From Escherichia coli (GTDB lineage Bacteria > Pseudomonadota > Gammaproteobacteria > Enterobacterales > Enterobacteriaceae), in NCBI RefSeq assembly GCF_003334335.1, contig NZ_QOWQ01000148.1: a stretch of 837 bases of DNA; one strand, given 5' to 3'. Below the pieces are notes generated by a model that worked only from the letters and a program-made list of their open reading frames with translations, did no database searches and was not told the DNA's origin. Below, in pieces: positions 1 through 837 of the stretch. The translations under genes and the position numbers were made by a program. The number at the start of each line of letters is the position of its first letter. Within the stretch, counting starts at the first letter, position 1.

Positions 1-381
1 CTGAACGCCGGTGATACGGCCACGGATACCACGGTAAATGGCGGACTGTTCACCGCCAGGGGCGGCACACTGGCGGGCACCACCACGCTGAATAACGGCG
101 CCATACTTACCCTTTCCGGGAAGACGGTGAACAACGATACCCTGACCATCCGTGAAGGCGATGCACTCCTGCAGGGAGGCTCTCTCACCGGTAACGGCAG
201 CGTGGAAAAATCAGGAAGTGGCACACTCACTGTCAGCAACACCACACTCACCCAGAAAGCCGTCAACCTGAATGAAGGCACGCTGACGCTGAACGACAGT
301 ACCGTCACCACGGATGTCATTGCTCAGCGCGGTACAGCCCTGAAGCTGACCGGCAGCACTGTGCTGAACGGTGCCATTGAC
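1..381 (+). other. flu: C-terminal rungs of the passenger-domain (alpha43) beta-helix
   Basis: Repeated short beta-strand-like motifs with alternating hydrophobic residues (xLxLxx, TLTV, TLTL) separated by Gly/Asn turns. The in-frame hexanucleotide ctgaac (Leu-Asn) recurs five times, at nt 1, 289, 364, 538 and 646; the first four are followed by g, and the last two lie beyond this sub-feature. Domain assignment follows the established Ag43 architecture. Confidence 0.7.
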
Positions 382-837
382 CCCACGAATGTCACTCTCG
401 CCTCCGGTGCCACCTGGAATATCCCTGATAACGCCACGGTGCAGTCGGTGGTGGATGACCTCAGCCATGCCGGACAGATTCATTTCACCTCCACCCGCAC
501 AGGGAAGTTCGTACCGGCAACCCTGAAAGTGAAAAACCTGAACGGGCAGAATGGCACCATCAGCCTGCGTGTACGCCCGGATATGGCACAGAACAATGCT
601 GACAGACTGGTCATTGACGGTGGCAGGGCAACCGGAAAAACCATCCTGAACCTGGTGAACGCCGGCAACAGTGCGTCGGGGCTGGCGACCAGCGGTAAGG
701 GTATTCAGGTGGTGGAAGCCATTAACGGTGCCACCACGGAGGAAGGGGCCTTTGTCCAGGGGAATAAGCTGCAGGCCGGTGCCTTTAACTACTCCCTCAA
801 CCGGGACAGTGATGAGAGCTGGTATCTGCGCAGTGAA
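1..837 (+). CDS. flu: Internal fragment (5' and 3' ends outside the window) of a self-associating autotransporter adhesin of the Antigen 43 family; covers the C-terminal passenger beta-helix, the alpha/beta junction and the autochaperone region
   Basis: Frame 1 is open across all 279 codons, whereas the other frames are interrupted. The composition is rich in Thr/Gly/Asn/Leu/Ser/Ala with short repeated motifs typical of a beta-helical passenger domain (TLAGTTTLNNGAILTLSG, TLTVSNTTLTQKAVNLNEGTLTLNDSTV). The C-terminal stretch HFTSTRTGKFVPATLKVKNLNGQNGTISLRVRPDMAQNNADRLVIDGGRATGKTILNLVNAGNSASGLATSGKGIQVVEAINGATTEEGAFVQGN.LQAGAFNYSLNRDSDESWYLRSE matches my recollection of E. coli K-12 Flu (Ag43) around residues 425-703. 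Identity is from memory, not from a search. Confidence 0.88.
   Translation, partial: MNAGDTATDTTVNGGLFTARGGTLAGTTTLNNGAILTLSGKTVNNDTLTIREGDALLQGGSLTGNGSVEKSGSGTLTVSNTTLTQKAVNLNEGTLTLNDSTVTTDVIAQRGTALKLTGSTVLNGAIDPTNVTLASGATWNIPDNATVQSVVDDLSHAGQIHFTSTRTGKFVPATLKVKNLNGQNGTISLRVRPDMAQNNADRLVIDGGRATGKTILNLVNAGNSASGLATSGKGIQVVEAINGATTEEGAFVQGNKLQAGAFNYSLNRDSDESWYLRSE
379..384 (+). other. flu: Asp-Pro dipeptide (GAC CCC), candidate alpha43/beta43 processing site
   Basis: Codons 127-128 of the window encode D-P within ...VLNGAID|PTNVTLASGATWNIPDN.... Ag43 is reported to be processed between Asp551 and Pro552, and the window position is consistent with that numbering if window codon 1 is about residue 425. 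Exact residue numbers are from memory. Confidence 0.5.
382..837 (+). other. flu: N-terminal part of beta43: autochaperone/junction region preceding the outer-membrane beta-barrel translocator
   Basis: This is the sequence downstream of the Asp-Pro site and before the expected beta-barrel. It is less regular than the upstream rungs and contains charged segments (RVRPDMAQNNADRLVIDGG, NRDSDESWYLRSE), consistent with the autochaperone segment found in AIDA-I-type autotransporters. The barrel itself would lie beyond the 3' end of the window. Confidence 0.6.

Follow-up and report, generated by a model that had tools for sequence, protein, structure and literature searches.

The 837-bp stretch of Escherichia coli DNA analysed here (the window) is an internal fragment of agn43 (flu), the gene for Antigen 43, and encodes the BL1-AC1E module of an SF-I type allele; we put the probability of this assignment at about 97%. 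The coding segment runs from position 1 to 837 on the plus strand in frame +1, contains neither a start nor a stop codon, and corresponds to codons 425–703 of K-12 Flu (1039 aa) or 426–704 of the 1040-aa alleles. The gene, the module and the mechanism are all already known and nothing new is hidden in the window, in agreement with the initial annotation, which had placed it entirely within an Ag43-family autotransporter gene and had seen no separate or novel system.

Megablast against 5426 complete E. coli genomes matched the window in 2417 of them; in 12 chromosome records the identity is 100%, under features annotated as agn43. The matches occupy 3122 places, of which only one is not on a chromosome. 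In one of the exact-match loci (L001) the window is found at 12001–12837, inside the agn43 gene (10726–13848). The Ag43/Flu protein of K-12 MG1655 (b2000, YP_026164.1; class C1, SL1a-EJ1-BL1-AC1E) shares 278 of 279 residues with the translation over its positions 425–703 (99.6%) and 832 of 837 nucleotides, the differences being R680K and four synonymous changes. Near-identity to an Ag43 allele over the full length had indeed been predicted. K-12 Flu and the window have BL1, the D|P site and AC1E in common; the stem of K-12 Flu is SL1a, and the window excludes the SL region. Residues 1–127 are 100% identical to residues 377–503 of Ag43a from the UPEC strain CFT073 (PDB 4KH3; class C3, SL2b-EJ1-BL1-AC1E), that is, 127/127 over the C-terminal stretch of the crystallised alpha-domain, whose chain ends '...NGAID'. 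Ag43a shares with the window the autocatalytic D552|P553 'PTNVT' site, and an Ag43a-like stem is present in four of the exact-match hosts. Within the window Ag43a is indistinguishable from a C1 allele, the differences between them lying in the SL stem, outside it.

Among the NCBIfam models the Ag43/Cah model gave the top score for the 279-aa translation (254.5 bits), followed at a distance by AIDA-I (49.6 bits). The cut-off of this equivalog model (NF033177), 1200 bits, is set for the whole protein; the window scores below it because it is only a fragment, and the full-length host protein from L001 (1040 aa, with the identical segment) reaches 1887 bits, above the cut-off. Pfam detects AC_1 (PF18883) at aa 149–266 [3.5e-19] and Pertactin (PF03212) at aa 157–277, which, with the identity to 4KH3, confirms that this is passenger/autochaperone sequence, as the initial annotation had recognised. 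The exact-match host protein consists of an ESPR (6–52), AIDA repeats, AC_1 and an autotransporter beta-domain (PF03797). The two hallmarks of a type Va autotransporter, the N-terminal ESPR signal peptide and the C-terminal 12-strand beta-barrel domain, fall outside the window, and the gene is disrupted in four of the 12 exact-match records.

Frame +1 is open throughout, with no stop in 279 codons and no frameshift, so that the single uninterrupted reading frame reported earlier stands. The other frames contain 16 (+2), 18 (+3), 1 (–1), 4 (–2) and 17 (–3) stops. Judging from the other sense frames approximately 17 stops would be expected, and the probability of encountering none would be about e^–17, far beyond chance. 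When the window was compared with five diverged SF-I alleles the differences were found mainly at third codon positions (29/43 in the case of L010) and none introduced a stop. This third-position-biased polymorphism, together with the lack of stops across alleles, identifies frame +1 as a coding frame under purifying selection.

The subdomain boundaries of K-12 Ag43 have been published by Ageorges et al. (2023; PMC10058404, Table S1) as SL 53–323, EJ 324–408 and BL 409–551. The BL is given as 'GGQADALMLEKGSSFTLNAGD...NGAID' (143 aa), the translocation unit begins 'PTNVTLASG...', and the AC core of K-12 reads 'DLSHAGQ...GNRL'. From these boundaries and the identity to 4KH3, positions 1–381 (+) encode BL1 residues 17–143, i.e. 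the last 127 of 143, with which the secreted alpha43 passenger ends; in the BL the identity to K-12 is 100%. The Asp|Pro autocatalytic site between alpha43 and beta43 (GAC CCC) is located at 379–384 (+) and is followed by TNVT. It equates to D551|P552 in K-12 and D552|P553 in Ag43a, the motif AID|PTNVT occupying aa 125–132 with the cleavage point at aa 127|128. Positions 382–837 (+) specify the opening 152 residues of the translocation unit, beta43, comprising a short linker, the autochaperone and the last part of the beta-helical region, '...WYLRSE' (Table S1; PDB 7KO9). With '...WYLRSE' the window stops at the homologous end of the passenger plus AC construct crystallised as 7KO9, while the alpha-helical linker and the beta-barrel (beta-domain aa 766–1016 of the host protein) lie beyond it.

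The type-1 autochaperone domain, of the AC1 subtype E found in SF-I alleles, is encoded by 445–798 (+; Pfam AC_1). Within it the published AC core 'DLSHAGQ...GNxL' (PMC10058404 Table S1, AC column) extends over 457–771 (+; aa 153–257) and matches the K-12 entry except for R>K. This residue is specified by codon 256 (766–768, +; AAG, Lys), which is polymorphic: K-12 Flu has Arg, a number of further SF-I alleles have Met, and Lys recurs in a published C1 representative ('...FIQGNKL'; PMC10058404 Table S1). R680K, a natural polymorphism, lies at the margin of the autochaperone core. The SF-I alleles are recognised by BL1 (143 aa) rather than BL2 (90 aa), and aa 1–127 are identical to the BL1 of both K-12 and 4KH3. 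They are also recognised by AC1 subtype E, which is strictly linked to EJ1-BL1 and which is evident here from the AC_1 match and the K-12 AC core. The window contains the autocatalytic D|P site and the autochaperone, both of them defined by experiment and important to the mechanism.

Ag43a has been reported in a 2025 preprint (10.1101/2025.04.08.647479) to self-cleave between D552 and P553; N-terminal sequencing of beta43 read PTNVT, and the D552A substitution abolished autocatalysis. The window motif AID|PTNVT is the same as this experimentally sequenced site, and the present copy would be expected to undergo autocatalytic cleavage at D|P. N-terminal sequencing and the structural papers (PMC8993888, 10.1101/2025.04.08.647479) place an autocatalytic site upstream of the AC, at D|PTNVT. 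The introduction of PMC10058404 locates cleavage 'between the AC1 and translocator' and attributes it to an unidentified protease, in conflict with its own Table S1, with PMC8993888 and with the preprint.

A mechanism can be carried over from characterised proteins which are identical or nearly identical to this one (PMC10058404, PMC8993888, PMC13337833); the folding order, cleavage and function of the present copy, as well as the intactness of its gene, are predicted on this likeness. The C-terminal beta-barrel, encoded outside the window, would insert in the outer membrane and the passenger would be threaded out C-terminus first. The autochaperone (window aa ~149–266) would be first to arrive at the surface, where it would fold into capped beta-rungs that template, or nucleate, the stacking of the beta-helix; the BL1 rungs (window aa 1–127) would be next to stack and then the remaining beta-helix. 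Self-cleavage of the chain at Asp|Pro (window aa 127|128) would yield alpha43, held non-covalently to beta43. Cell-cell 'Velcro' self-association would be the task of the SL stem, upstream of the window. The autoaggregation that defines SAATs, through head-to-tail contacts between passengers, is a functional property of this stem (PMC10058404). Phase-variable expression would be governed by three GATC sites overlapping an OxyR site upstream of the gene, again outside the window.

The nearest relatives outside SF-I are the Cah and SF-II Ag43 proteins of EDL933 (PDB 7KOH) and UTI89 (PDB 7KO9). They are recognised by the same family model (NF033177), have the same autochaperone fold, and their translocators are 93–97% identical, but they carry the EJ2-BL2 module and a second AC1 subtype, and their BL2 is 53 aa shorter (PMC6668479). 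In a multiple alignment the region of the window module is 44% (BL) and 61% (AC region) identical to Cah; among the SF-I alleles themselves the corresponding values are 97–100% and 93–100%. By BLASTP only aa 153–279 of the window align to Cah, at 55% identity. The window module occurs in 2417 genomes versus 4135 for the translocator shared by Ag43 and Cah. AIDA-I of diffusely adhering E. coli also has an AC1 of the E cluster, a G13-type translocator, a beta-helical passenger and autocatalytic processing (PMC10058404; 10.1101/2025.04.08.647479); on the model scores given above it is a different protein.

The class of an Ag43 protein is set by the type of its SL stem (residues 53–323), upstream of the window. 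Classes C1 and C3 have the BL1-AC1E module in common, and identical copies of the window stand behind three SL stems: SL1-type (L004), Ag43a-like (L005, L006, L019) and Cah-like (L001, L018, L020). The window consequently identifies neither allele nor class. Four groups can be distinguished among the 12 exact-match records: four records carry the protein WP_169063205.1, four have an Ag43a-like stem, three (G1/2, G6/7 and G8) have an agn43 gene split by IS421, and in one (NMBU-W12E19, L004) an SL1-type stem is combined with truncation at the 3' end, giving eight intact genes and four pseudogenes. The intact 1040-aa gene was read directly in seven records; in the eighth, H12, its presence (and membership in the WP_169063205.1 group) is deduced from coordinates and a record length near-identical to those of H11. 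In the split gene (L002 9371–13848) the transposase of the IS4-like IS421 lies at 10715–11827 and the window segment is in the 3' half; the two halves are annotated as 'AIDA repeat-containing protein' and 'autotransporter domain-containing protein'. In NMBU-W12E19 (L004 10729–13488) the truncation is within the beta-barrel, and unrelated sequence follows from a junction near 13370.

As four of the 12 exact matches are in pseudogenes, the open frame of the window is no proof of an intact gene. The window might thus derive from a non-functional remnant of agn43, interrupted by an IS element or truncated, rather than from an expressed adhesin gene. Besides the three copies situated in the 3' fragment of an IS421-split gene and the one in a 3'-truncated gene, the existence of Ag43/Cah genes broken by a pile-up of IS elements and a group II intron speaks for such an origin; set against it are the seven records in which the 1040-aa gene is intact, the eighth (H12) in which it probably is, and the freedom of the window itself from stops and frameshifts. 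On balance we consider a remnant rather unlikely. Far less can be said for an origin in another self-associating autotransporter (Cah/SF-II Ag43, AIDA-I or TibA). The beta-helix plus AC architecture is common to all of these, there is a weak match to the AIDA-I model, and the AC region is 55% identical to that of Cah; but the score of the Ag43 model (254.5 bits) far exceeds that of AIDA-I (49.6), the alignment to Cah is confined to aa 153–279 with a BL just 44% identical in the multiple alignment, TibA (4Q1Q) matches SL regions of the host proteins only and not the window, and the identity to K-12 Flu is 99.6%. The model scores, the identities to 4KH3 and K-12 Flu and the partial nature of the Cah alignment refute such an origin, to which we attach a negligible probability; the best matches are to Ag43 and not to a different autotransporter family.

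It is likewise extremely unlikely that the agn43 coding sequence is overlapped by a second, hidden element, be it an antisense gene, a small RNA, an internal promoter or a repeat-based element. What might suggest one is frame –1, the antisense frame in phase with the gene, which has just one stop in 837 nt, and an ORF of 90 aa at 211–483 (–). In G+C-rich genes with pronounced codon periodicity long ORFs on the antisense strand are commonplace, and the ORF at 211–483 is most likely a by-product of that periodicity. Against a hidden element, the best match in an Rfam scan of the window is at chance level (11.7 bits, where the gathering score is 90), a scan for promoters and terminators returned no sigma-70-like and no terminator-like site, and the repeat scan found no inverted repeats and a single direct repeat, a 25-mer pair with 72% identity; nor does the K-12 annotation show any feature inside flu. 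A hidden RNA or regulatory element was rejected on the three scans, and the earlier statement that the window contains no promoter holds. In K-12 a small RNA, IsrC (L003 7318–7512), is located outside the window, between the yeeP pseudogene and flu, and overlaps both the flu leader and the switch region with its three GATC sites.

The initial annotation had seen the interest of this DNA in which allele it represents and where it sits. The second part can be answered for the exact-match hosts, in which the flanks are CP4-44-like, tRNA-associated islands with the upstream three-GATC OxyR/Dam region that it had proposed to look for; the first falls away with a BL1-AC1E window, which does not assign the allele. 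The exact copies occur in at least three island contexts. One CP4-44-like island is at a tRNA-Ser adjoining infA-aat-cydC, and that of NMBU-W12E19 (L004), which includes ter tellurite-resistance genes, is at a tRNA-Ser adjoining ghrA-ycdX; in the YfjI/IS66-rich island of L002, L005 and L006 no tRNA was seen within the 25 kb examined. In all host islands agn43 has a GTPase gene on its upstream side and, on its downstream side, genes for DUF932, antirestriction, JAB and cbeA/cbtA. A cluster of three GATC sites is present at about –190 to –253 from the start codon in every host locus examined; the role of these sites in the Dam/OxyR switch is described in PMC13337833. For practical purposes an 837-nt match to this part of agn43 identifies the SF-I (BL1-AC1E) module only, and supplies no class assignment, prediction of aggregation, island location or proof of intactness.

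The protein WP_169063205.1 (L001 10726–13848; L018 and L020 1226–4348) is a clean recombinant with a crossover at residues ~311–322. It matches Cah of EDL933 in the signal peptide (100% identity) and the SL (98%), and K-12 in the EJ (100%), BL (100%) and AC (99%). The combination of SL2a with EJ1-BL1-AC1E 'was not observed' according to PMC10058404; Table S1 of the same paper nonetheless holds a Cah-like SL/EJ1-BL1-AC1E junction, labelled C3 (VAEP_29.7). With the junction already in that table the L001-type allele (Cah-like SL plus EJ1-BL1-AC1E) was withdrawn as a candidate for a new Ag43 class. The recombinant junction is common: at ≥99.6% identity and full coverage it was found down to approximately rank 115 by spread sampling, which corresponds to roughly at least 115 complete genomes, including NC101.

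The initial annotation had noted, from a manual scan, that the window lacks GATC, and the count is indeed zero against 2.06 expected; with P(0) ~0.13 this is by itself not significant for 837 nt, and the absence was dismissed as a peculiarity of the window. Over the whole ~3.1-kb agn43/cah coding sequence of 13 SF-I and SF-II alleles, 11 have no GATC and two have one, where ~6–9.5 are expected from dinucleotide or synonymous-codon shuffles; zero was reached in ≤1/2000 or ≤1/500 of the shuffles. In K-12 core DNA GATC occurs ~4 times per kb and the longest gap in 100 kb measures 1.8 kb, compared with GATC-free gaps of 3.3–8.8 kb in the Ag43 islands. Stretches free of or poor in GATC are L001 10505–13884, L003 7350–10720, L004 10539–19307, L008 8107–16575 and L017 16085–19354. 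Apart from the three GATCs of the OxyR/Dam switch there are none near agn43; these three are followed by a desert of 3–9 kb downstream and, at four of six host loci analysed, preceded by one of ~1.3–1.7 kb upstream. The backbone genes of L001 (GTPase, DUF932, antirestriction, JAB and neighbours) contain one GATC versus ~13 expected; the numbers are normal in cargo genes, IS elements and core genes. CP4-57, which has the same backbone without agn43, is GATC-free over 3.3 kb of it.

Since the depletion extends to the backbone genes, including those of CP4-57 which has no agn43, it characterises the island as a whole and is not linked to the switch. The depletion also involves other 4-bp palindromes. 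In K-12 flu (L003 7540–10659) the observed and expected numbers are 0/5.1 for TCGA, 6/13.4 for CGCG and 14/24.9 for GGCC, and in the genes surveyed (K-12 flu and agn43 of L010–L014) GCGC, ACGT and AATT are also low and CCGG is in excess (47 versus 29). The palindrome skew of agn43 is therefore general and not restricted to GATC. The equal depletion in the backbone genes and that of the other palindromes weaken the idea that the absence of GATC is an adaptation of the agn43 switch, and the most economical reading is a generic avoidance of palindromes and GATC by this family of mobile islands. That the GATC-free state of agn43 was selected, leaving the operator GATCs as the sole nearby Dam/SeqA targets, is very unlikely; were it so, these targets could tune the fidelity or the switching rate of the Dam/OxyR epigenetic switch. 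Counter-selection of GATC in enterobacterial phages and mobile DNA has long been known. A description of island-wide GATC avoidance was not found in the literature searched, an incomplete selection which included a 2026 review, and the avoidance in the CP4-44/CP4-57 island family is possibly a small, undescribed compositional feature, one that concerns the island and not the window.

No phage matched the window. A plasmid or phage origin was discarded, the five 'plasmid' matches, the agn43-carrying PLSDB records H111–H115, being 1.0–4.9 Mb in size and most likely mislabelled chromosomes. In an EDL933 assembly a 287-kb 'plasmid unnamed2' (L007, NZ_CP124741.1) carries cah together with chromosomal-island genes; all of these are probably mislabelled or misassembled chromosomal sequence. 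Lastly, L008 (1834–10849) contains a disrupted Ag43/Cah gene, whose ESPR fragment (1834–1965) is separated from the 3' remainder (8132–10849) by ~6 kb of IS3, IS629 and IS21 elements and the reverse transcriptase (ltrA) of a group II intron.
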